64,000 nucleotides of DNA from Clostridiales bacterium UBA4698 (lineage in GTDB: Bacteria > Bacillota > Clostridia > TANB77 > UBA1234): assembly GCA_002404755.1 (NCBI GenBank), contig DHKI01000032.1, positions 43,039 to 107,038 of the forward strand, in the 5' to 3' direction. A program made the translations under genes and the position numbers. The notes beneath the pieces were generated by a model. The model ran no database searches. It saw only the letters and a list, made by a program, of their open reading frames with translations, and was not told the origin of the DNA. This document shows positions 7,414-34,321 of this stretch, in pieces (within the stretch, counting starts at the first letter, position 1; each line of letters starts with the position of its first letter).

Positions 7414-7523
7414 TAAAAGTGTACCAGTTGATAAAAATATGCGGTAAAAATTTTGCTTAGATTTTCACATGTAGTGAATTTGAAAAATAGAGTTACATCG
7501 GCCTTGTATTTCTAGTTAATGAA

Positions 7524-23408: not shown

Positions 23409-24197
23409 ATGAAGTACGAAAAAGAGATCAAGGTTTTAGACATCGACATTGAAACGACCATGTCAAATTTGCAAGTAATTGGAGCTGAATTTGTAGGTAA
23501 GAAAGAACAAAAAATTTATGTTTACGATGTTCCAACTTTGTATTATCGCTATCTTGAGATTTGTGAGCTTCTGAAAAGCTCGAATGAATTGATGGTGACT
23601 ACAAATATTGGGAAATTAAAAGTGCTTTTGGAAGAGTTTGTCGACTTAATTCCTGAAGGTGATTTGATAGGTTTGACGGTCGAGTTAGGTGTGAAAGACA
23701 TTAGAGAAATTTTGAAACTTCCTGTAGAAAAAATGCTTGAAAAAATTCAAGGAAGAGCTTTCTTTGAAAAAATTAGTTCATACAAGATTAATCCAAACAA
23801 ATGGATTAGACTTAGAAAAAGCAATGAAAAAGTTGAACTTACAACAAAGCACATATTTAACAAAAAGGAAATGAAGGTTCAGGCTGTAGAGGAAAGAGAG
23901 ATAACCACATCTTCTTTTGAAGAAACTAACAGTATTCTTGAAAGTATAGGCATTGTTAAGAAAAGTTATCAAGAAAAAATTAGGTATAGTTACGAATTAG
24001 ATGGAGCTAATATCGAGATTGACTTGTGGCCATTACTTAACCCATATCTGGAGATTGAGTGTGATGATGTAAGTGTGATTGAAAGCATTATTACTAGATT
24101 AGGACTTACTGATAAAGAAATCGTTTCTATTAATACTCAGCAGTTATATCGTAGAATAGGTATTGATTTGCAAAAAACACCGGAACTTAAGTTTTAA
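23409..24197 (+). CDS. CYTH-domain protein (triphosphate tunnel metalloenzyme / CyaB-ThTPase family)
   Basis: N-terminal EIKVLDIDIE...LQVIGAEFVGKKEQKIYVYDVP matches the CYTH EIE...Q.D.YFD pattern. C-terminal YELDGANIEIDLWPLLNPYLEIECDD matches the terminal beta-strands with the ExE motif. Confidence 0.5.
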   Translation: MKYEKEIKVLDIDIETTMSNLQVIGAEFVGKKEQKIYVYDVPTLYYRYLEICELLKSSNELMVTTNIGKLKVLLEEFVDLIPEGDLIGLTVELGVKDIREILKLPVEKMLEKIQGRAFFEKISSYKINPNKWIRLRKSNEKVELTTKHIFNKKEMKVQAVEEREITTSSFEETNSILESIGIVKKSYQEKIRYSYELDGANIEIDLWPLLNPYLEIECDDVSVIESIITRLGLTDKEIVSINTQQLYRRIGIDLQKTPELKF

Positions 24198-24314
24198 CCT
24201 TTAAAAAAGGGTATTTCATAAAAAGTGACAGTTTAAATTAAATTGACACAGAAAAAGGGATATGAGGCTACATTAAATTGTAGTCTCAATTTATTTTATA
24301 ATGGAGGTACGGTA

Positions 24315-24866
24315 ATGGATAATATTAATTTAAATTTATATAAAATTTTTTATATAGTTGCTAATTCTAAAAGCTTTGTAGAGGCATCTAATAAATTATA
24401 TATTTCACAACCAGCAATAAGTAAAGATATAAAAACATTAGAGTCTATAATGAATACAAAATTGGTTTATAGAAAAAATAATGGAATAACTTTAACTAGA
24501 GATGGAGAAGAGTTTGTTAAATATCTGGAGGAATCATTTGGTATATTAAATGTAGGAGAGAAGATAATAAAACAAAGAAATGATTTATCAAGTGGAAATA
24601 TATCTATTGGTTGTCCTTCTCATATATCATCACTTTTTTTGATGGAAAAAATAGAAGAGTTTAAAAAGGACTTTTCAAATATTAGAATTCGATTATGAGT
24701 GGGTCAAGCGAACAATTAATGAAAATGTTACAATTGCACAAAGTTGATTTTATAATAGATACTTCTCACAATACAAGTATATATAATAATTTAAAGATAA
24801 AACATATAAAGGAATTTGATACAATCTTTATTTCAAACCAAAAAAGAAAAAACGAACGCAGATAAG
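24315..24866 (+). pseudogene. LysR-family transcriptional regulator, frameshifted and C-terminally truncated
   Basis: wHTH NLYKIFYIVANSKSFVEASNKLYISQPAISKDIKTLE. The reading frame ends at 24698 (IRIRL*). The substrate-binding-domain sequence SIMSGSSEQLMKMLQLHKVDFIIDTS continues in the +2 frame and stops at 24866, about 100 aa short of a full-length LysR. The junction lies in aattcgatt. Confidence 0.6.
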
Positions 24867-24894
24867 AAATTAATAAGAGAATATTTAGAAAAAT

Positions 24895-24934
24895 AATATA
24901 GATATAACTTCAAGTTATATCTATATTATTTTTT
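24895..24934 (+). terminator. Rho-independent terminator
   Basis: Perfect 13-bp stem atatagatataac / gttatatctatat, 5-nt loop, then tattttttt. Confidence 0.65.
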
Positions 24935-24998
24935 TGTATTTGTTTGTTTTTATTATGCATTATAAAATCACATAAAAATATATTAAAGGAGGAAATGT

Positions 24999-25620
24999 AT
25001 GAAAATTGCAATTGAAGGAATGGATGGTGTGGGGAAGACGACAATTGCTAAAAAACTAGCAGGTGATTTAGACTTCATGTATGTAGATAAACCTCTTCAT
25101 TATTTGTTAGATGGAACAGAAACTGAAACATATATGAAGTTAAATAATATTTTGAAAAAAATGTACAATTTGGATGATTCTGTGATTAAAGCTTGGATGA
25201 TAGGGTTAGGCAATTTATATAGTTGTAGATATTTCAAAAATGAAAATGTTATTTTAGACAGGCATTTAGTTTCAAATTATTTTTGGAATGGAAGTAAAGA
25301 AAGTAACATCGTTTTTTAGAGCCTTGATAGATTTAATTGGAGTGCCTGATATGACAATTCTTTTATATGCTTCAACCAAAACGCGTCAAGAACGATTAGC
25401 ATTAAGAGATAATAAGGATAGAGACCTTTTTGATCCAGAAATATTAGTTGAAGGATATGAGAAAATGAAAAAATTTTTGGAAGAATTTAATATACCATAT
25501 ATTCCAATAAATACTGAAAATAAAACTTTGGAAGATGTATACAGTACTGTTTACCAAGAAGTTGAAAAAATCATGAGAAAGGAGAAACAGGAACATGGAA
25601 TTGTTGAGCCCAGCAGGTAA
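24999..25620 (+). pseudogene. P-loop (deoxy)nucleoside / thymidylate kinase-like NMP kinase, split by a frameshift at the T6 run 25312-25317
   Basis: Walker A IAIEGMDGVGKTTIAKKL (dNK/Tmk-type) and DRHLVSNYFW are in frame 1; the lid region FFRALIDLIGVPDMTILLYAST..RQERLALR is in frame 2. Removing one T from gttttttag restores NIVFRALIDL. Confidence 0.6.
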
Positions 25621-27706
25621 TTTAAAACATATTGATTTAGCAATAAATAAAAAAGTAGATGCTGTATATGGAGGTTTAAAAGAATGGAATGCTAGAAACA
25701 AAGCCGTAAACTTTTCAATAGAACAATATAATGAAGTAGTAAAAAGATTACATACTCATGGTATAAAATTTTACATGACATTAAATACCTTAGTGTTTGA
25801 TGAAGAAATTGAAGAGATATTATGTTTTTTAGAAAAAGATGATACTGTATTACCAGATGCTTTTATTATTGCAGATTTAGGTTTAATTCAAAGAATTAAA
25901 GAAAGTTTTCCTAATGTAGCATTGCATTTTTCAACACAATTTGGAATTCATAATATATCCGATGTTAAATTTGTTGAGAGCTTATCTTGTGAAAGGGCTA
26001 TATTAGCCAGAGAACTAACAGCAAATGAAATAAATAATATAAAAAATAATACAGAATTAGAAATAGAAAATTTTGTATGGGGGTCGCAATGTATAAGTTT
26101 TTCTGGAATGTGTTTTTTTGGTTCATTAATTAATTGTGGTAATGGTAATAGAGGGAAATGTATTATAACATGTAGAGATATATATCAAATCGGGGATGAA
26201 AAGGGGCATTTTTTATATGTTCCGGACTTGGATTGTACGGCAATGCTTTCAGTTTTAGAAAAAATGAATATTGATTGTATCAAGTTAGAGGGAAGAAGAA
26301 GAGCGGTAGAAGAATTGTCAAATATTATAGATAATATACAAAAACAACAATATAATACTGAACAAAATGGATATATATATGGAGAAAAAGTAGGAAAAAA
26401 TAAACTTTATGAAAAAATTAATAAGAGAATAAAGCCAATTTGCAATGTAAGAGAATTAAAAAATATATCTGAATATGATGTTTTTATAAAATATAACGAG
26501 GGTACTCCTGAAGAATTTATAACTGAAAATATCGAAAGTTACAATAAAGAAGATATATATTATGTTTTTTCAGAATATAAAAAAGATTTTAAATTTGATA
26601 AGAAAAATATTTCTATTGATTTAAAAATTGAAGGAGATGTAGTAACCAGTTTATTATATGTTAATTCAAATGGAGAAGGAGAGAATTTTAATGATATACA
26701 AGAAAGTGGATATGTACCATTTGAATTAAAAAGATTTGTTAAAGACATAAATATTATTAATGAGAATATTAACTTATATAAAGTAAAATATATTAGAAAT
26801 CAAGAGGATAATTATAAAATTAGTGTGAACTTGTATAATAAAATATTGGAATATATAAAAAATGATAACTTGATGAATAAAAAGAAAAAGCAAGATATAA
26901 ATAAAAAATTTAGAGTAGAAGAGTTATATGTAGAAACAGATAGATTAGATTATGCATTAGAATTAAAACAAATCTCACAAGTTAAAATTATTTATAATAT
27001 AGCTTCAATAGAAAATTTGAAAATAGTAAAAAGACTTATATCTGAATTAGGAAACGATGTAATATATAAATTACTCTTATTTAATTTTAAAAGTGTAAGT
27101 TTATTGGAGTATTATAAAGAACTTGAAAGTTATCCAGTAATGTTTACTAGACTATCGCAAATATATGAAACAAAAGATTTAAAGTTTAGTAAGAAATATA
27201 TAGATTATACTATTTATGCATGGAATATGGATACTATAAAATTTCTAAAGAAGTACGGCATCGATGAATTTACGGCCTCTCCTGAATTAAGTTATGCGAA
27301 AAATAATAAAATTTTTAATGGGAATACAGTTCAATATATAATTGCAGGCAAGTTACCATTAGTATATACGAGACAATGTTTTTCACATTTATATGGTTGT
27401 GAGAATTGTATAAAAAATAAAAAAACAGAAAAAGAGCTTATTAATGTTGATAAAAATATTAAATTTAAAATTATTTGTAAGGACGATTATAGGATGATTA
27501 TTGCAGATACTCCTATGTTGAATAACTTTCAATACTTTAATAATTGTAATTCAATAAAATTTAGGTATGTAACAACAGATCAAGAAATAGATGAAATAAT
27601 AAAGACAATAAATACTATAAAAGAAGAAAATTATTACGAAAAGTTAAAGAATATGAAATTGTGGAAAGATTCTTATGAAGGAAACATTTTGGAAAGTAGG
27701 TGCTAA
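25595..27706 (+). CDS. Peptidase U32-family protein (Fe-S, O2-independent hydroxylase / collagenase-like family) with a roughly 430-aa extremely AT-rich C-terminal extension
   Basis: MELLSPAGNLKHIDLAINKKVDAVYGG ... CISFSGMCFFGSLINCGNGNRGKCIITCRD is the canonical U32 signature with its Cys cluster. A second CxxC pair occurs near the C-terminus (YTRQCFSHLYGCENC). Confidence 0.7.
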   Translation: MELLSPAGNLKHIDLAINKKVDAVYGGLKEWNARNKAVNFSIEQYNEVVKRLHTHGIKFYMTLNTLVFDEEIEEILCFLEKDDTVLPDAFIIADLGLIQRIKESFPNVALHFSTQFGIHNISDVKFVESLSCERAILARELTANEINNIKNNTELEIENFVWGSQCISFSGMCFFGSLINCGNGNRGKCIITCRDIYQIGDEKGHFLYVPDLDCTAMLSVLEKMNIDCIKLEGRRRAVEELSNIIDNIQKQQYNTEQNGYIYGEKVGKNKLYEKINKRIKPICNVRELKNISEYDVFIKYNEGTPEEFITENIESYNKEDIYYVFSEYKKDFKFDKKNISIDLKIEGDVVTSLLYVNSNGEGENFNDIQESGYVPFELKRFVKDINIINENINLYKVKYIRNQEDNYKISVNLYNKILEYIKNDNLMNKKKKQDINKKFRVEELYVETDRLDYALELKQISQVKIIYNIASIENLKIVKRLISELGNDVIYKLLLFNFKSVSLLEYYKELESYPVMFTRLSQIYETKDLKFSKKYIDYTIYAWNMDTIKFLKKYGIDEFTASPELSYAKNNKIFNGNTVQYIIAGKLPLVYTRQCFSHLYGCENCIKNKKTEKELINVDKNIKFKIICKDDYRMIIADTPMLNNFQYFNNCNSIKFRYVTTDQEIDEIIKTINTIKEENYYEKLKNMKLWKDSYEGNILESRC

Positions 27707-27712
27707 TAAATA

Positions 27713-28423
27713 ATGAGAACGAAAAGTATATGGGGAAACCCTCCAACAAGACTATATAAATTAATAAATTTAGCGGAAAGGGATTTTAGTAATAAATTTA
27801 CTGCTTGTATAGTAGGATGTTCGGACGGAAAGTTTTTAATGCCATTTGCGAGAAAAGGTTATTTAGTAACAGGATATGATATAGATGAGATTGCATTATA
27901 TGGTGGTGAAAAGGATTTCCCGATTGTAAATGATAAAATAAAGTATACATATAATAAAAATTTTAAATCAAACGATTATGAATTAGAAAGAAAACGTGTT
28001 TTAGGTATAGTTGAAAGATTGGAAAAAGAAAATTTATCAAATAATGCAATTATTGAAAAGAGAGATTTTTACAAAAATATTCCGAACGAAAAATTTGATG
28101 TAGTTTTTACAAGTTGCTCATTACATTATACTGTGAATAAAGAGTTTACATTAAAGGATAAAGTAGAAAAATTACAATCAATTGTTTCAAAAAATGTTTT
28201 TTTGTATATTGATTATATGATGGCAATTGATGAGGAAGATAGTATAAATTATCCTAAAAATAAGTTCTTTAGAAAAGGCGAAATTAAAAATTATTTTGAT
28301 GATAATTGGAAAATTATTTCCGTTATAGAAAATAATACGCCTTCTTTTGAAGGTGCTCATGTTGATTGCGTAAAAGATCATTTTCATAGATTTGGATATG
28401 TGTTAGCTAAAAAAGTAAAATAG
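27713..28423 (+). CDS. TehB-like class I SAM-dependent methyltransferase
   Basis: Motif I ACIVGCSDGKFLMPFARKGYLVTGYDID. The C-terminal FRKGEIKNYFDDNWKII...RFGYVLAKKV parallels the TehB C-terminus (FKEGELRRYYEGW...LRFATMLARK). Confidence 0.6.
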   Translation: MRTKSIWGNPPTRLYKLINLAERDFSNKFTACIVGCSDGKFLMPFARKGYLVTGYDIDEIALYGGEKDFPIVNDKIKYTYNKNFKSNDYELERKRVLGIVERLEKENLSNNAIIEKRDFYKNIPNEKFDVVFTSCSLHYTVNKEFTLKDKVEKLQSIVSKNVFLYIDYMMAIDEEDSINYPKNKFFRKGEIKNYFDDNWKIISVIENNTPSFEGAHVDCVKDHFHRFGYVLAKKVK

Positions 28424-28435
28424 GAGGAAAATAAA

Positions 28436-29206
28436 ATGCAAAAAAAAGAAATATGCTGGAATATAACAACAAGATGCAATCAAGATTGTAAATATTGTCA
28501 CAGATTTTTGAATGTTAAAGAGTTGCCATTTGAAAAAAGTGAAAAGATTTTAGATAATTTAGTAAAAGATAAAATTACAGATATTACTTGGACAGGTGGA
28601 GAAGCATTAATATATGAAAATATAGATAAGTTAATTGAAAAAGCGTATAAAAGCGGGATAAAAAATAAGCTAATAACAAATGGAAAAATTCTGGCAAAGG
28701 GTGATATGCATATTATTAAGTATTTAGATAGCTTAACATTATCAATAGATTCTAATAATAATCAAATAAATGAAAAACTTGGTAGAGGAAAAAATCACTT
28801 TATAAATATTAAATATATATTAGATTACATTAAGGAAAATAATATTAATATAAAGTTAAGAATTAATACTGTTGCAAATAAGCTAAATATTAAAAATATG
28901 AGTGAATTAATGACTTTTTTAAATGAATACAATATTTATGCTTGGAGGATATTCAGATTTATGCCATTAAGGGAAACTGCAATAAAAAACAAAGAACAAT
29001 TTGAAATTTCCGATGAAGAATTTGAATCTATAAAGGTCAAAAGTAAAAAAGAGAGTAATATAAAAAGAATAGAATTTCGTCAAGAAAAAGATATGGAACA
29101 AAAGTATGTATTGTTAGTTGCAAATGGTGATATAGTTGTAACTGAAAATGGAAAAGATTTAAAAAAAGGAAATGCTTTGTTTGATAGTGTATCAAAATAT
29201 ATGTAA
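28436..29206 (+). CDS. Radical SAM enzyme of the viperin-like family (candidate prokaryotic viperin / nucleotide-modifying radical SAM)
   Basis: CNQDCKYC is a CxxxCxxC cluster in the context [17 protein letters not shown] (viperin: NYHFTRQCNYKCGFCFH). Other segments align with human viperin: [32 protein letters not shown] ([19 protein letters not shown]), [16 protein letters not shown] ([14 protein letters not shown]), [10 protein letters not shown] (RWKVFQCLLI) and EISDEEFES (VIGDEEFER). Confidence 0.7.
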   Translation: [256 protein letters not shown]

Positions 29207-29218
29207 AGGAGAAAAGCT

Positions 29219-30055
29219 ATGAGTAATGAAACTCCAAATCTTATAATAATAGGAAATATAGCATATGATGTAATTGATTTTGGCAAAGTTTTTGATGACA
29301 GAGAACAAATTGATGAAATTGGAGGAGCTTGTGTATTTTCAGCTATTCCTGCTAGTTTTTTTAACAGGGTAGGTGTGGTTGCTAAAATTGGTGAAGACTT
29401 TGACCTTTCTAAATTTTATAATTATAATATTGATTTGTCAGGAATAAAAAGATTGAATCTTCCAACAACTAAATTTTATACTATATGGAATACAATTGAT
29501 GGTCAAAATAGAACTATTATTGGTGAGGTGCAGCCTGATATGGAAGTTGGTGCTAGTGATATACCGGAAAAATTCTTAAAAGCGAAACATTTTCATTTGA
29601 CTACGGCCAATCCTTTGAAACAACTAGAGATAATTAATTATTTGAGAAAGAAAACAACGGCAACAATTAGTGCAGATACAATTGATTGTTACGCCAAACA
29701 ACCAGAATGCAAAATGGTTTTTGATAATGTTGATATAGCTTTTATAGATAAAGAGTATACCAATTTATTGGATTGTAAAGCACGAATTAAGATTATAAAA
29801 TATGGTAAAGAAGGTTGCTTATATTATTCAAGTAAAAAAAGTTTTCCTGTTTATGCAAATGTAATAGAAAATGTTGTAGACAAAACGGGAGCAGGAGATT
29901 GTTTAAATGGAGTTTTTTTGAATTTATTAATTAATGGGCAAAACGAAATTAAAGCATTAACTACAGCTGTAAATATAGCCACAGAATCAATAAAGAATAG
30001 AGGAATAATGAGTTTGAAAATACCATCTAATGTAAAATATGATGTGGAAATATAA
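29219..30055 (+). CDS. PfkB-family (ribokinase-like) sugar/nucleoside kinase
   Basis: N-terminal IGNIAYDVI..GGA and C-terminal anion-hole motif DKTGAGDCLNG. Confidence 0.75.
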   Translation: MSNETPNLIIIGNIAYDVIDFGKVFDDREQIDEIGGACVFSAIPASFFNRVGVVAKIGEDFDLSKFYNYNIDLSGIKRLNLPTTKFYTIWNTIDGQNRTIIGEVQPDMEVGASDIPEKFLKAKHFHLTTANPLKQLEIINYLRKKTTATISADTIDCYAKQPECKMVFDNVDIAFIDKEYTNLLDCKARIKIIKYGKEGCLYYSSKKSFPVYANVIENVVDKTGAGDCLNGVFLNLLINGQNEIKALTTAVNIATESIKNRGIMSLKIPSNVKYDVEI

Positions 30056-30307
30056 AAATACAAAGTTGAAATGCATGTTTTGTAAATGAGAGCCCAAAAT
30101 AAATATGTTAATGACAAAATTGAATATACGAAGCTGATGAGGGTGCAAGTTAGAATACTTACACCTCAATGTTTTTTAAAAAGGTCATTACACATAATGT
30201 GAGGCTTAAATCAAAAAAAGATAAGAGACTTTGCCTCAAAATATAATTTTGAAATGATGTGGATGAGTTTATATGGAACTTTATTTGGTATATTTAGGAG
30301 GAGTAAT

Positions 30308-30775
30308 ATGGAGGAATATGAATATAGTTTTGAGGTTGCTGGAATTGAACCATATATAGAATATTGTGAGAAAAATTCTTATAAACTACGTAAATCAAAT
30401 ACACAAAAAAGAATTGTTTATGAAAATTTTTATAATAAAAATGTATTAGCGAGAATTACAACTGAAATCGAGAATAATAATGAAATCACAAAAATCGATT
30501 TTAAAAATGTTGGCAAAAATGAAAAAGATTTAAAAGTTTCGAATGAATCAATACCAATGTTAATTACATCTGAAAACATTGATATGATTGAATCTATTTT
30601 AGAGGTATTAAGATTTGAAAAAACCTCTGAGCTTAAAAGAGAAAGATATGTTTATATAAAAAATAATGTTAAGTTTGAAATAGATAAATATATTGAGCCA
30701 ATAATGAATGTTGTTGCCATAGAGGGAGAAAAGTCTTTAGTGGACAGTGTTTATCAAGAAATAAAAGAGCTTTGA
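30308..30775 (+). CDS. CYTH-like (triphosphate tunnel metalloenzyme) domain protein
   Basis: Strong RBS taggaggagtaat-ATG at 30308; the ORF track starts at 30254. N-terminal EYEYSFEV...QKRIVYENF and C-terminal RERYVYIKNNVKFEIDKY...VVAIEGE fit the CYTH pattern. Confidence 0.45.
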   Translation: MEEYEYSFEVAGIEPYIEYCEKNSYKLRKSNTQKRIVYENFYNKNVLARITTEIENNNEITKIDFKNVGKNEKDLKVSNESIPMLITSENIDMIESILEVLRFEKTSELKRERYVYIKNNVKFEIDKYIEPIMNVVAIEGEKSLVDSVYQEIKEL

Positions 30776-30912: not shown

Positions 30913-31947
30913 ATGAAATTACAAGATTTTTATTATGACTTGCCAGAAGAGCTTATAGCACAACATCCAACAGAAAAAAGAGATGAGTGTAGACTACTTG
31001 TTTTAGACAAAGAAACTGGAAAAATCGAGCACAAAATTTTTAAAGATATTGTTAAGTACATATCTCCAAATGATTGCTTGGTAATAAATGAAACAAGAGT
31101 TATTCCTGCTAGGCTTTATGGCAGAAGAGAAGAAAAAGAAGAAAAAATTGAAATGCTACTTCTAAAAGATTTAGGCGATGAGAAGTGGGAGGTTCTAGTA
31201 AAACCAGGCAAGAAGTGCAAAATAGGTACAGAGCTTTTATTTGAAGCAGATGGCGAGGTTTTACTAAAAGCAAAAGTTATTGAGATTAAAGAAGATGGAA
31301 ATAGGGTTGTAAAACTTTCATATGATGGCATTTTAAATGAAATTTTAGATAAAATTGGAATAATGCCACTTCCACCATATATACATGAAAAGTTAAAAGA
31401 AAAAGAAAGCTATCAAACAGTATATAGTAAGGTTGAAGGTAGTGCTGCAGCTCCTACAGCTGGCTTACATTTTACGCCAGAATTGTTAAGTGAACTTGAG
31501 AAAAAAGGCGTAAAAATAGCTAGAGTTTTACTACATGTTGGACTTGGTACTTTTAGACCGGTAAAAGAAGAAAACATAGAAGATCACAAAATGCATTCTG
31601 AGTATTATGAAATATCTAAAGAGGCATGCGATATAATAAACGAAACAAAGAAGAATGGTGGAAGGGTAATTTGCGTTGGTACAACTTCATGTAGAACTGT
31701 TGAATCAGCAGCTGATGAGAATGGCTTTTTAAAGCCTCAGAATGGCAATACAGAGATTTTTATATATCCAGGATATAAGTTTAAGGTATTAGATTGTTTA
31801 ATAACTAATTTTCACTTGCCAGAGAGCACACTTTTAATGCTTATATCAGCACTTGCAAATAGAGAAATGATAATGAATACATATAAAGTTGCTGTCGAAG
31901 AAAAGTACAGATTTTTTAGCTTTGGAGATGCAATGTTAATTAAGTAA
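30913..31947 (+). CDS. queA: S-adenosylmethionine:tRNA ribosyltransferase-isomerase
   Basis: [19 protein letters not shown] and [10 protein letters not shown] are QueA signatures. Confidence 0.95.
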
Positions 31948-31979
31948 AAATGCATGAAAATCATAATTATTTAAGATGA

Positions 31980-33116
<1,137 letters not shown>

Positions 33117-33232
33117 TATGGTCATTAACAATGTTATGTTTTTAAGCGAATAATAACTTTTAATTTTCCTTGAACCTTAATTTTAGTCGTATTATAATGT
33201 TTATGTAAAAGTTTTCTTAAGGAGTGTGAAAA

Positions 33233-33574
33233 ATGGAAGTAGCAAATATTGAAAAGTACATGCCAACGGTGTATCAGGCTGAAATATTGGTGAAAAATAA
33301 TTTAGAGATGCATAGAAGACAAGGTGTGAAAGCTTTTAAAATAATACATGGCTATGGTTCTACAGGAAAAGGCGGGGCTTTAAGAACAGGAATTAGAAAT
33401 TATTTAAGCCAGCTAAAAGGAGCAAAAATAATCGCTGATTATATTCCAGGCGAAGAATGGACAGCATTTAATGAGACAACAAGAAAAGTACTAGATTTAG
33501 ATAACTCTTTTAGAAAAGATTCAGATTTGGGCCAAATGAATTCAGGTATCACAATTATTGTTATTTCGTGGTAG
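33233..33574 (+). CDS. Smr-domain protein
   Basis: IIHGYGSTGKGGALRTGIRNYL matches the Smr motif (IHGKG.G.LR). Confidence 0.45.
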   Translation: MEVANIEKYMPTVYQAEILVKNNLEMHRRQGVKAFKIIHGYGSTGKGGALRTGIRNYLSQLKGAKIIADYIPGEEWTAFNETTRKVLDLDNSFRKDSDLGQMNSGITIIVISW

Positions 33575-33610
33575 TTATAGTGATATAATAAATACAAAGG
33601 AGGAGAATAT

Positions 33611-34321
33611 ATGAAAAAATTAGTTTTGAAATTTTTAATTGTTGCTACGGTTTTATTTTCGATGTGTTCTATTTCATTTGCGGCTAGCAAAGTTATAAAA
33701 AGTGTTGCTGTTACTGACATAGATGCACCATATTCTACAGAAAAGGTATTGGATACAAAAGGCGAAGTGCCACGTAATGCCACTTATAGAATAACCGAAG
33801 TTGCTTGGAAATTGCCTGGAAATTCATCTTCTGGTTTTTATGAGGTTTCTGTTACGTTAAAGGCAAGCATTGGTTATGTTTTTGATGAAAATACTACAGG
33901 TACTATTAATAGCAAAGATATTCTAAGCAAAGAGTTAATTGACGAAGATGAGCTAAAAATAACGTATGCTTTTAAAGATGAAAAATCTGAAATAGGCTCT
34001 GCTACAACGACATTAAGACATAGAATTTTTACATATTGCGATTCGAGAATGGGTACGATAACTCCAAGTACACCTAGAGTTTTGCATGATGATACTGTTA
34101 CAATAAGTATTGTACCGAATGATGGATACAAAATAAAGGATGTTGAGGTTGACGGTGATTCTGTAGGTGCTGTTTCTGAGTACAAGTTCAGAAGAGTCAG
34201 AGAAGAACATACTATAAGAGTATACTTTGAAGAGATAAAAAAAGACGATAATAAGCAAGATACTACTACAAAGGAAAGACCTATATTAGAATTTATAAAA
34301 AAGATTCTTAGTATGTTTTAA
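33611..34321 (+). CDS. Secreted hypothetical protein (signal peptide)
   Basis: MKKLVLKFLIVATVLFSMCSISFAAS is a signal peptide; the rest is a Thr/Ser/Asp-rich beta-type sequence. Confidence 0.5.
   Translation: MKKLVLKFLIVATVLFSMCSISFAASKVIKSVAVTDIDAPYSTEKVLDTKGEVPRNATYRITEVAWKLPGNSSSGFYEVSVTLKASIGYVFDENTTGTINSKDILSKELIDEDELKITYAFKDEKSEIGSATTTLRHRIFTYCDSRMGTITPSTPRVLHDDTVTISIVPNDGYKIKDVEVDGDSVGAVSEYKFRRVREEHTIRVYFEEIKKDDNKQDTTTKERPILEFIKKILSMF

Follow-up and report, generated by a model that had tools for sequence, protein, structure and literature searches.

Characterised relatives of U32L

All characterised U32-family relatives of the protein described here are oxygen-independent hydroxylases that need Fe–S clusters and prephenate (PMC6747719, PMC5727448, PMC10990095). 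RlhA (YdcP), homologues of which are common in clostridia, synthesizes 5-hydroxycytidine (ho5C) at C2501 of 23S rRNA (PMC5727448), and requires both cofactors to do so (PMC5727448, PMC10990095). It also associates with 50S precursors. TrhP produces 5-hydroxyuridine (ho5U) with the same requirements (PMC6599085, PMC10990095), and is a prephenate-dependent hydroxylase of tRNA U34 that is followed by a methyltransferase in the pathway to 5-methoxyuridine (mo5U) and uridine 5-oxyacetic acid (cmo5U). The co-occurrence of DUF3656 with U32 is confined to the RlhA subfamily, approximately half of whose members harbour a second, C-terminal U32 motif (RlhA2a/b), so that a layout with two U32 domains (RlhA1+RlhA2) is already known, in proteins of clostridia and bacteroidia, whilst PrtC and HP0169 belong to other U32 subfamilies (PMC5727448). 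Linkage of a kinase to viperin has also been described (10.1101/2023.09.13.557418). Herein, these systems are compared with U32L, a two-barrel U32-family Fe–S protein encoded at positions 25595..27706 of a 64,000 nt stretch of contig DHKI01000032.1 from Clostridiales bacterium UBA4698 (hereafter the window; all window coordinates refer to its forward strand, on which U32L, its domains and motifs and the cassette genes from the CYTH-like protein to PfkB lie).

In its architecture U32L is a divergent example of a type already known, and its fixed place in an extended pVip (prokaryotic viperin) cassette appears undescribed; no link between U32 proteins and viperin or phage defence was found in the literature searched. 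With RlhA it shares an N-terminal barrel at 33 % identity (35–38 % to two-domain members), an identical CX6CX15CX3C motif, the presence of a domain between the barrels and a C-terminal cysteine cluster paralleling C572/C580/C611/C614. It differs in having no detectable DUF3656 and a second barrel that is invisible to Pfam, in that its fourth C-terminal cysteine is C605 rather than part of a CxxC with C628, and in that its gene never stands alone, being locked within a viperin/kinase/methyltransferase operon on mobile DNA. The substrate of U32L is probably not rRNA.

TrhP (YegQ; YrrN/YrrO in Bacillus subtilis) follows the same logic of a hydroxylase succeeded by an S-adenosylmethionine (SAM)-dependent transferase as does the pairing of U32L with a methyltransferase, and provides the best NCBIfam match (E 1.3e-45), with 35 % identity in the N-terminal domain. 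However, U32L scores 156.1 bits against a cut-off of 534 for the TrhP model NF011996, aligning over residues 2–202 only, and TrhP possesses one barrel and another C-terminal domain, with the cassette methyltransferase not being TrmR- or CmoB-like. UbiU–UbiV, the heterodimeric U32 pair of oxygen-independent ubiquinone synthesis, similarly consists of two cooperating U32 barrels with a [4Fe–4S] cluster in each, the cysteine motif of UbiV being deviant, and is prephenate-dependent and followed by the O-methyltransferase UbiG, a UbiG-like gene being a frequent accessory of the cassette. In contrast, the barrels of U32L are fused in one chain, identity does not exceed 27 %, and there is neither a UbiT-like lipid carrier nor a quinone context. 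Finally, the radical SAM enzyme and kinase of the cassette match PADLOC models for pVip and VakA and have mobile-element and defence neighbours, as in described pVip systems, but those systems contain only one or two genes, whilst in the cassette they are joined by three further fixed members, U32L, a methyltransferase and a CYTH-like protein. Neither these three nor the PfkB kinase are covered by a PADLOC model, and the literature searched ties none of the three to viperin.

A conserved and horizontally mobile operon

U32L belongs to the core of an operon that is horizontally mobile and encodes a CYTH-like protein, a VakA-type kinase, U32L itself, a methyltransferase and a viperin-like radical SAM enzyme. 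When 185,579 species, each represented by a single genome, were scanned, the U32L family was present in only 22 loci, all within metagenome-assembled genomes of uncultured gut Bacillota-type bacteria. The kinase is found in every one of these reference loci, the methyltransferase in 20 (both loci without it being cut contigs), the viperin-like radical SAM enzyme in 18 and the CYTH-like protein in 17. The same gene order recurs in metagenome contigs with unrelated flanks, and a sister family, displaying 31–34 % identity to U32L, likewise keeps the CYTH-like, radical SAM, U32L and methyltransferase genes together, in one instance with a 3-deoxy-D-arabino-heptulosonate 7-phosphate (DAHP) synthase. 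The methyltransferase shows 53–82 % identity in the 20 reference loci and 43–48 % in sister-family loci. Three short canonical U32 genes from the same scan have none of the cassette partners beside them. The contigs of two more distant relatives, P0159 and P0172, are not long enough to reveal neighbouring genes. The adjacency of U32L to a viperin-like enzyme and a methyltransferase, remarked upon in an initial sequence-only reading of the window, is therefore no coincidence of this locus, but conserved synteny across the 22 reference loci and the sister family.

The CYTH-like protein is nearly as faithful a member as the methyltransferase, the sister family included, where its homologue adjoins the radical SAM gene (L037, 2–700; L039, 3380–4210). 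Its role may be that of a triphosphatase or a cyclase for the cassette product.

With regard to mobility, cassettes are often neighboured by integrase, resolvase, Mob, TnpV, AbiEii or RloB/AAA_21 genes. A phage or plasmid origin was considered and rejected, there being no close homologue amongst 50,697 phage or 72,556 plasmid records. In the window, the cassette genes are all GC-poor (23.5–29.9 %), with the flanking typA and tgt genes at approximately 35 %. Comparison with a sibling contig (L006, ~98 % identity to the window) gives a synonymous divergence of 0.008–0.032 for the cassette genes (23409–30055) and of 0.11–0.20 for queA, tgt and the next two genes (30913–34321). The cassette island thus looks to have been recently exchanged between strains, with its boundary lying between 30.06 and 30.9 kb.

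These observations bear upon the possibility that U32L is an RNA modifier akin to RlhA or TrhP, by which a cytidine or uridine of host rRNA or tRNA would be hydroxylated and then methylated, either as a self-protection or regulatory arm of the cassette or as the work of a housekeeping rlhA. All characterised close relatives do act on RNA, and the RlhA1+RlhA2 layout is retained down to the C-terminal cysteine cluster, in a bacterial group where RlhA homologues are common. In addition, the U32 pair of B. subtilis adjoins the mo5U methyltransferase gene (yrrMNO). A housekeeping role, however, sits poorly with a family confined to ~22 of ~186,000 reference species and always contained inside the cassette, beside integrase, TnpV, Mob and AbiEii genes, as well as with its low GC content and a synonymous divergence around ten-fold below that of flanking genes. 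More generally, the hallmark domain of the RlhA subfamily, DUF3656, cannot be detected in U32L, and the accessory genes encode enzymes of the nucleotide pool rather than RNA-binding proteins. RNA modification is hence considered unlikely, albeit worth keeping in view.

Variable members of the cassette

Beyond the fixed members, a variety of accessory genes are found amongst the 22 loci, including those for a GreA-like factor (18 loci), a HAD hydrolase (14), a UbiG-like O-methyltransferase (12), a DAHP synthase (5) and a cytidine deaminase together with a pyridoxal phosphate (PLP)-decarboxylase-like protein (5). Nucleotide enzymes amongst the accessories are the cytidine deaminase and NUDIX, Ham1, HD, DHH, HAD and PfkB proteins, with PfkB largely restricted to the clade of the window (L001/2/5/6/8/9 and L023). 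The GreA-like factor is short, with examples at 7437–7973 of L003 and 9174–9659 of L025, and in 16 other related loci. DAHP synthase is the entry enzyme of the pathway that leads to prephenate. Its genes lie beside U32L in two divergent lineages (L003, 10082–10885; L037, 4447–5259; and L011, L012, L013, L021 and L022), and the encoded proteins score above NCBIfam curated cut-offs. Such recruitment fits a demand for prephenate.

Two loci, L019 (1–5300) and L025 (2–9659), are tight operons without viperin that contain HD, Ham1, methyltransferase, kinase, U32L and GreA-like genes, to which L025 adds a ribonucleotide reductase, DHH, a cytidine deaminase and a PLP-decarboxylase-like gene. These variants argue for modification of a base over that of a sugar, and the product of such a viperin-less operon might be a modified deoxynucleotide.

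The breadth of these accessories could also be read as that of a gene cluster making a nucleoside natural product for secretion, be it an antibiotic or a signal, with U32L as a tailoring hydroxylase. Consistent with this are an ATP-grasp enzyme, the PLP-decarboxylase-like protein, two methyltransferases, DAHP synthase and a LysR regulator, together with a resemblance of the radical SAM enzyme to BlsE of blasticidin biosynthesis, which is nonetheless weaker than that to viperin (E 1.7e-8 versus 2e-15 for mouse viperin 5vsl, its best PDB relative). No exporter or resistance pump is present in any of the cassettes inspected, however, and the matches to PADLOC pVip and VakA, the AbiEii, RloB/AAA_21 and integrase neighbours, and GreA-like accessories suggestive of an intracellular target all count against secretion. 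A natural-product cluster is accordingly viewed as distinctly unlikely, although the predicted chemistry of U32L would be unchanged under it.

The U32L gene and its product

The start of U32L, MELLSPAGN, coincides in alignment with the N-terminus of all homologues, and an AGGAG lies 10 nt upstream of the ATG. The 5′ end overlaps the upstream kinase ORF by 26 nt, as the sequence-only reading had noted; the translational coupling proposed there is plausible in intact relatives, which have overlaps of 26–32 nt, but the kinase of the window itself is frameshifted. The whole ORF encodes 703 aa, and its AlphaFold2 model is confident (predicted local distance difference test score, pLDDT, 86.9; predicted template modelling score 0.88). 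A search of 5.8 billion proteins returns more than 120 full-length homologues of 688–708 aa at 47–70 % identity. This size, initially thought unusually long, is in fact ordinary, since RlhA-type U32 proteins of the known RlhA1+RlhA2 layout span 650–850 aa (PMC5727448).

The C-terminal region had also been described as extremely AT-rich and rich in N, K, I and Y. GC content is indeed low, at 27.5, 19.8 and 23.1 % for the N-terminal, middle and C-terminal parts, respectively, compared with 30.8 % for the window, although this is not specific to the tail given the low GC of the whole cassette. A composition count bears out the K/I/N/Y enrichment of the C-terminal part, yet the region is conserved: identity to the 27 most distant homologues is 59 % for the N-terminal domain, 39 % for the middle and 47 % for the C-terminal part. 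Pure low complexity of the extension can therefore be discounted, as its many conserved homologues and predicted fold indicate, and low-complexity junk or a mis-called ORF is excluded by the more than 120 full-length homologues and the confident fold prediction.

No Pfam model matches residues 261–703, even at E≤10, and a PDB sequence search, using either whole U32L or a C-terminal profile, finds no relative of solved structure. The best NCBIfam models, TrhP and UbiU, are both far under their cut-offs. The N-terminus of the protein (MELLSPAGNLKHIDLAINKK) contains no signal peptide and no hydrophobic signal, and U32L, which would be cytoplasmic, does not group with the secreted PrtC collagenases. 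That U32L might be a PrtC-like collagenase or peptidase derives from the historical family name and the Pfam 'Collagenase' label of DUF3656 only. Against this, besides the missing signal peptide, stand two conserved cysteine motifs of Fe–S type, best matches that are RlhA-type proteins, TrhP and UbiU, the placement of PrtC in a separate subfamily (PMC5727448) and an operon context of nucleotide metabolism, leaving peptidase activity with almost no likelihood.

The N-terminal U32 barrel

Residues 1–270 (25595..26404) form a canonical U32 barrel, in keeping with the full U32 signature recognised there at the outset. Pfam Peptidase_U32 (PF01136) matches residues 79–257 with 152.7 bits (cut-off 22.4; E 1.2e-44), and a Foldseek search with the whole model ranks the only solved U32 barrel, 5d88, first (E 4e-6). 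The N-terminal domain is related to Escherichia coli RlhA (E 2e-36; hhalign E 1e-27), as well as to TrhP (E 6e-32) and UbiU (27 % identity).

The cluster-1 motif (26066..26176) reads E158..C166-X6-C173-X15-C189-X3-C193-R, and not the CxxxC of the sequence-only reading. It conforms exactly to the recurrent [4Fe–4S] pattern of U32 proteins, CX6CX15CX3/4C (PMC6747719). In an alignment of 37 U32L homologues, from which all cysteine conservation counts are taken, E158 and each of the four cysteines expected to ligate the cluster are invariant (37/37). By hhalign, E158, C166, C173, C189 and C193 align with E161, C169, C176, C192 and C196 of RlhA. On this sequence evidence, the N-terminal barrel retains the full catalytic U32 signature, comprising Glu158 and a predicted [4Fe–4S] site.

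The middle domain

A β-rich domain (residues 271–430; 26405..26884), with AlphaFold2 strands at residues 295–410 and a β-rich stretch that the model extends over 295–425, occupies the position that DUF3656 holds in RlhA-type proteins. It is the least conserved part of U32L and, as part of the Pfam-blank region described above, gives no match to the DUF3656 model even at E≤10. A profile comparison with DUF3656 segments is in register but falls short of significance (E=0.28).

The second barrel and the C-terminal cysteine site

Residues 431–660 (26885..27574) correspond to a second, diverged U32 (TIM-type) barrel with a β subdomain, as indicated by profile search, AlphaFold2 and Foldseek. The model of U32L comprises the N-terminal barrel, the β-rich middle, an alternation of strands and helices over residues 444–592, a small β subdomain and terminal helices; when the C-terminal part is modelled alone, pLDDT is 88 and Foldseek returns TIM barrels. 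A profile of residues 431–703 (A2), searched against 1.84 billion cluster representatives, yields 380 matches, nearly all of them proteins of 550–850 aa that align in their C-terminal third, and the distant matches (E 1.8e-18 to 1.8e-6) bear Pfam U32 and DUF3656 domains. Amongst the regions matched are the C-termini of P0172, P0190, P0182, P0229 and P0251, the first of which has precomputed domains in the order U32–DUF3656–U32. When C-terminal segments are examined alone, five out of eight exceed the Peptidase_U32 gathering cut-off (E 7e-19, 1e-25, 4.5e-8, 9.5e-8 and 2.9e-30), three of these five spanning nearly the whole A2 profile; the other three of the eight are sub-threshold. The deep profile search, combined with the Pfam matches of these intermediates, indicates by transitive homology that residues 431–660 are a strongly diverged second U32 domain. 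A degenerate second U32 barrel in the C-terminal half, which had been suggested as a possibility to be examined, is thus borne out by both homology and a confident TIM-barrel model.

Direct comparison with RlhA-type proteins is of more variable strength. Their second U32 domains match U32L at 25–32 % identity (BLAST E 5e-11 to 3e-4), save for one of the five tested, which has no pairwise BLAST match and is reached by the A2 profile at E 1.4e-12. By hhalign, the C-terminal profile does not reveal the second barrel against E. coli RlhA (E 0.006, probability 6 %). Of the proteins used for comparison, the two-domain RlhA-type proteins and the sister family are alone in matching U32L over both halves.

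Within this domain lies the cluster-2 motif (27356..27493), P588-LVYTRQ-C595-X6-C602-X2-C605-X22-C628-xx-D631-x-R633, residues 591–605 of which read YTRQCFSHLYGCENC. The second pair of cysteines, originally placed at the very C-terminus, is therefore conserved but not terminal, lying approximately 100 aa ahead of the end as part of the set C595, C602, C605 and C628 (37/37, 37/37, 36/37 and 37/37 homologues, respectively). The arrangement PLVYTRQC595-X6-C602-X2-C605-X22-C628 parallels PVMITKHC572-X7-C580-X30-C611-X2-C614 of E. coli RlhA, a protein that cannot do without C580 and C611 (PMC5727448). Conversely, profile alignment to the N-terminal domain of RlhA sets Q580, P588 and C595 of U32L opposite E161, C169 and C176, so that neither the Glu nor the first Cys of the catalytic-type motif is preserved in the second barrel. 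By analogy, it would seem nearer to a partner subunit such as UbiV than to a second active site, and the four-cysteine site probably accommodates a second cluster for electron relay, the part that UbiV plays for UbiU.

Two such four-cysteine sites in one protein also invite the idea that U32L is no hydroxylase at all, but a two-cluster electron-transfer partner for the [4Fe–4S] cluster of the viperin-like radical SAM enzyme. Enzymes of the radical SAM type depend on a reductant, a role as electron relays is ascribed to U32 clusters (PMC10990095), and recent discussion has touched on electron-transfer partners dedicated to viperin (PMC13592299). Nevertheless, the catalytic U32 signature around Glu158 is invariant; L019 and L025 keep U32L, the methyltransferase and the kinase without a radical SAM gene; recruited DAHP synthase genes accord with a requirement for prephenate rather than for electrons; and the tightest partner of U32L is the methyltransferase rather than the radical SAM enzyme. 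A pure electron-transfer role is consequently judged improbable.

The cassette in the window

Upstream of U32L in the window lies the CYTH-like (triphosphate tunnel) protein (23409..24197; 262 aa), which has weak CYTH and CyaB matches under cut-offs. It is followed by a pseudogene for a LysR-family regulator (24243..24870), with HTH_1 and a truncated LysR_substrate domain, and by a broken VakA-type nucleotide kinase (24999..25620), whose two ORFs represent the two halves of Thymidylate_kin and of PADLOC VakA (E 1.1e-8 and 6.7e-7). Downstream of U32L are a class I SAM methyltransferase of 236 aa (27713..28423), weakly TehB-like with weak Pfam and NCBIfam matches; the viperin-like radical SAM enzyme of pVip type (28436..29206); and a PfkB-family (ribokinase-like) kinase (29219..30055; Pfam PfkB E 2.7e-15). 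The radical SAM enzyme carries its CX3CX2C motif at residues 14–21 as CNQDCKYC, and matches the PADLOC model for pVip 'associated with kinases' (E 1.2e-45). From the kinase through U32L, the methyltransferase and the radical SAM enzyme to PfkB, the genes are separated by −26, +6, +12 and +12 nt. A 173-aa ORF after PfkB (30254–30775) has no family match; the sibling strain alone has a homologue, called at 155 aa in L006 and displaying 93 % identity, and all other cassettes lack one.

The stretch that separates the LysR remnant from the kinase contains, at 24897–24945, a perfect hairpin made of A and T only (ATATAGATATAACTT/AAGTTATATCTATAT), after which comes a T run. This is a probable terminator, and was missed by a consensus terminator scan because that scan requires G–C pairs. 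The promoter/terminator scan was otherwise uninformative, with 69 promoter-like sites against 60 expected.

With L006 as the reference for lesions, blastn reveals that the kinase frameshift stems from a run of six T residues at 25311–25316, where L006 has five; the kinase is intact, at 206 aa, in the sibling contigs L006 and L007. The LysR gene, encoding 291 aa and intact in L006, displays a 1 nt deletion after 24691 and lacks ~258 bp near 24851. In U32L, codon 494 (27074–27076) encodes Leu (CTC), whilst L006 and all 36 aligned homologues have Pro at this position, which belongs to a conserved motif, YKLPLFN, in the second barrel; the substitution may be damaging, which would fit decay of the locus. 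With its kinase and LysR genes broken, and considering Leu494, the system in the window is probably inactive or deregulated, unless the indels are assembly errors, which for the ~258 bp LysR deletion is unlikely.

Possible function of the cassette

On the preferred reading, whose chances of being right or wrong we hold to be about equal, and which proceeds by analogy to characterised U32 enzymes, U32L would serve a viperin pathway as an anaerobic, prephenate-dependent hydroxylase with a pyrimidine nucleotide as its substrate. Prephenate would serve as oxygen donor in place of O2, its supply boosted by the DAHP synthase of some cassettes, and the site of hydroxylation would most plausibly be C5 of cytosine or uracil, as in RlhA and TrhP chemistry. 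The neighbouring methyltransferase would then cap the new hydroxyl, the kinase would raise the nucleotide to the triphosphate and the viperin-like enzyme would dehydrate the ribose, such that the output would be a base-modified 3′-deoxy-3′,4′-didehydro (ddh) nucleotide that blocks phage transcription. The GreA-like factor could free host RNA polymerase from this chain-terminating analogue by transcript cleavage, thereby affording self-protection. Alternatively, hydroxylation may be directed at the electron-rich C3′=C4′ bond of the ddh-nucleotide.

A free pyrimidine nucleotide is proposed as substrate because enzymes of the nucleotide pool, along with a cytidine deaminase, make up the accessories, and modification of the base rather than the sugar because the U32L module also occurs with a ribonucleotide reductase in place of viperin. 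RNA polymerase is suggested as target by the known activity of viperin products and by the GreA-like partners.

A number of points weigh against this proposal. U32 enzymes are not known to use free nucleotides as substrates. As the middle domain cannot be recognised as DUF3656, a change of substrate is likely. The assignment of the second barrel is similarly imperfect, as Foldseek of the C-terminal part favours generic TIM barrels, with 5d88 at rank 27 (E 0.019; template modelling scores 0.41/0.45), and alignment of the N-terminal half of U32L to its C-terminal half by hhalign reaches only E 0.15, albeit in the expected register (LARELT versus ASPELS). The radical SAM enzyme scores 134.9 bits for NCBIfam viperin_w_prok, where the cut-off is 180, and so its product may not be a ddh-nucleotide. 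Since the methyltransferase is only weakly TehB-like, and does not resemble TrmR or CmoB, O-methylation of a 5-hydroxyl is a guess. Finally, the characterised nearest relatives modify RNA (PMC5727448, PMC10990095), and direct hydroxylase activity of a U32 protein has not been reconstituted in vitro (PMC10990095).

Going one step further, the cassette could represent a new branch of viperin immunity, in which a 5-hydroxy or 5-methoxy ddh-pyrimidine triphosphate is made, its decoration preceding or following dehydration of the ribose, U32L is the first U32 hydroxylase of free nucleotides and a GreA-like factor provides rescue. This fuller scheme is put forward tentatively, as one more likely to be wrong than right.

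Implications

To our knowledge, the products of known prokaryotic viperins are limited to three plain ddh-nucleotides. The cassette suggests an undescribed, chemically decorated antiviral nucleotide, and a conserved operon in which a viperin-like enzyme is accompanied by a methyltransferase and an anaerobic hydroxylase would imply a broader repertoire of natural antiviral nucleotide analogues, which are leads for antiviral drugs. For the U32 family, in vitro assay has been hampered by the nature of the substrates, namely precursors of the ribosome or else quinone intermediates of high hydrophobicity (PMC6747719, PMC10990095); if the proposed activity is correct, the family would gain a small soluble substrate, with which an in vitro assay of prephenate-dependent hydroxylation becomes feasible. 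The shikimate pathway would, in that case, also be linked to bacterial immunity in strictly anaerobic gut bacteria.

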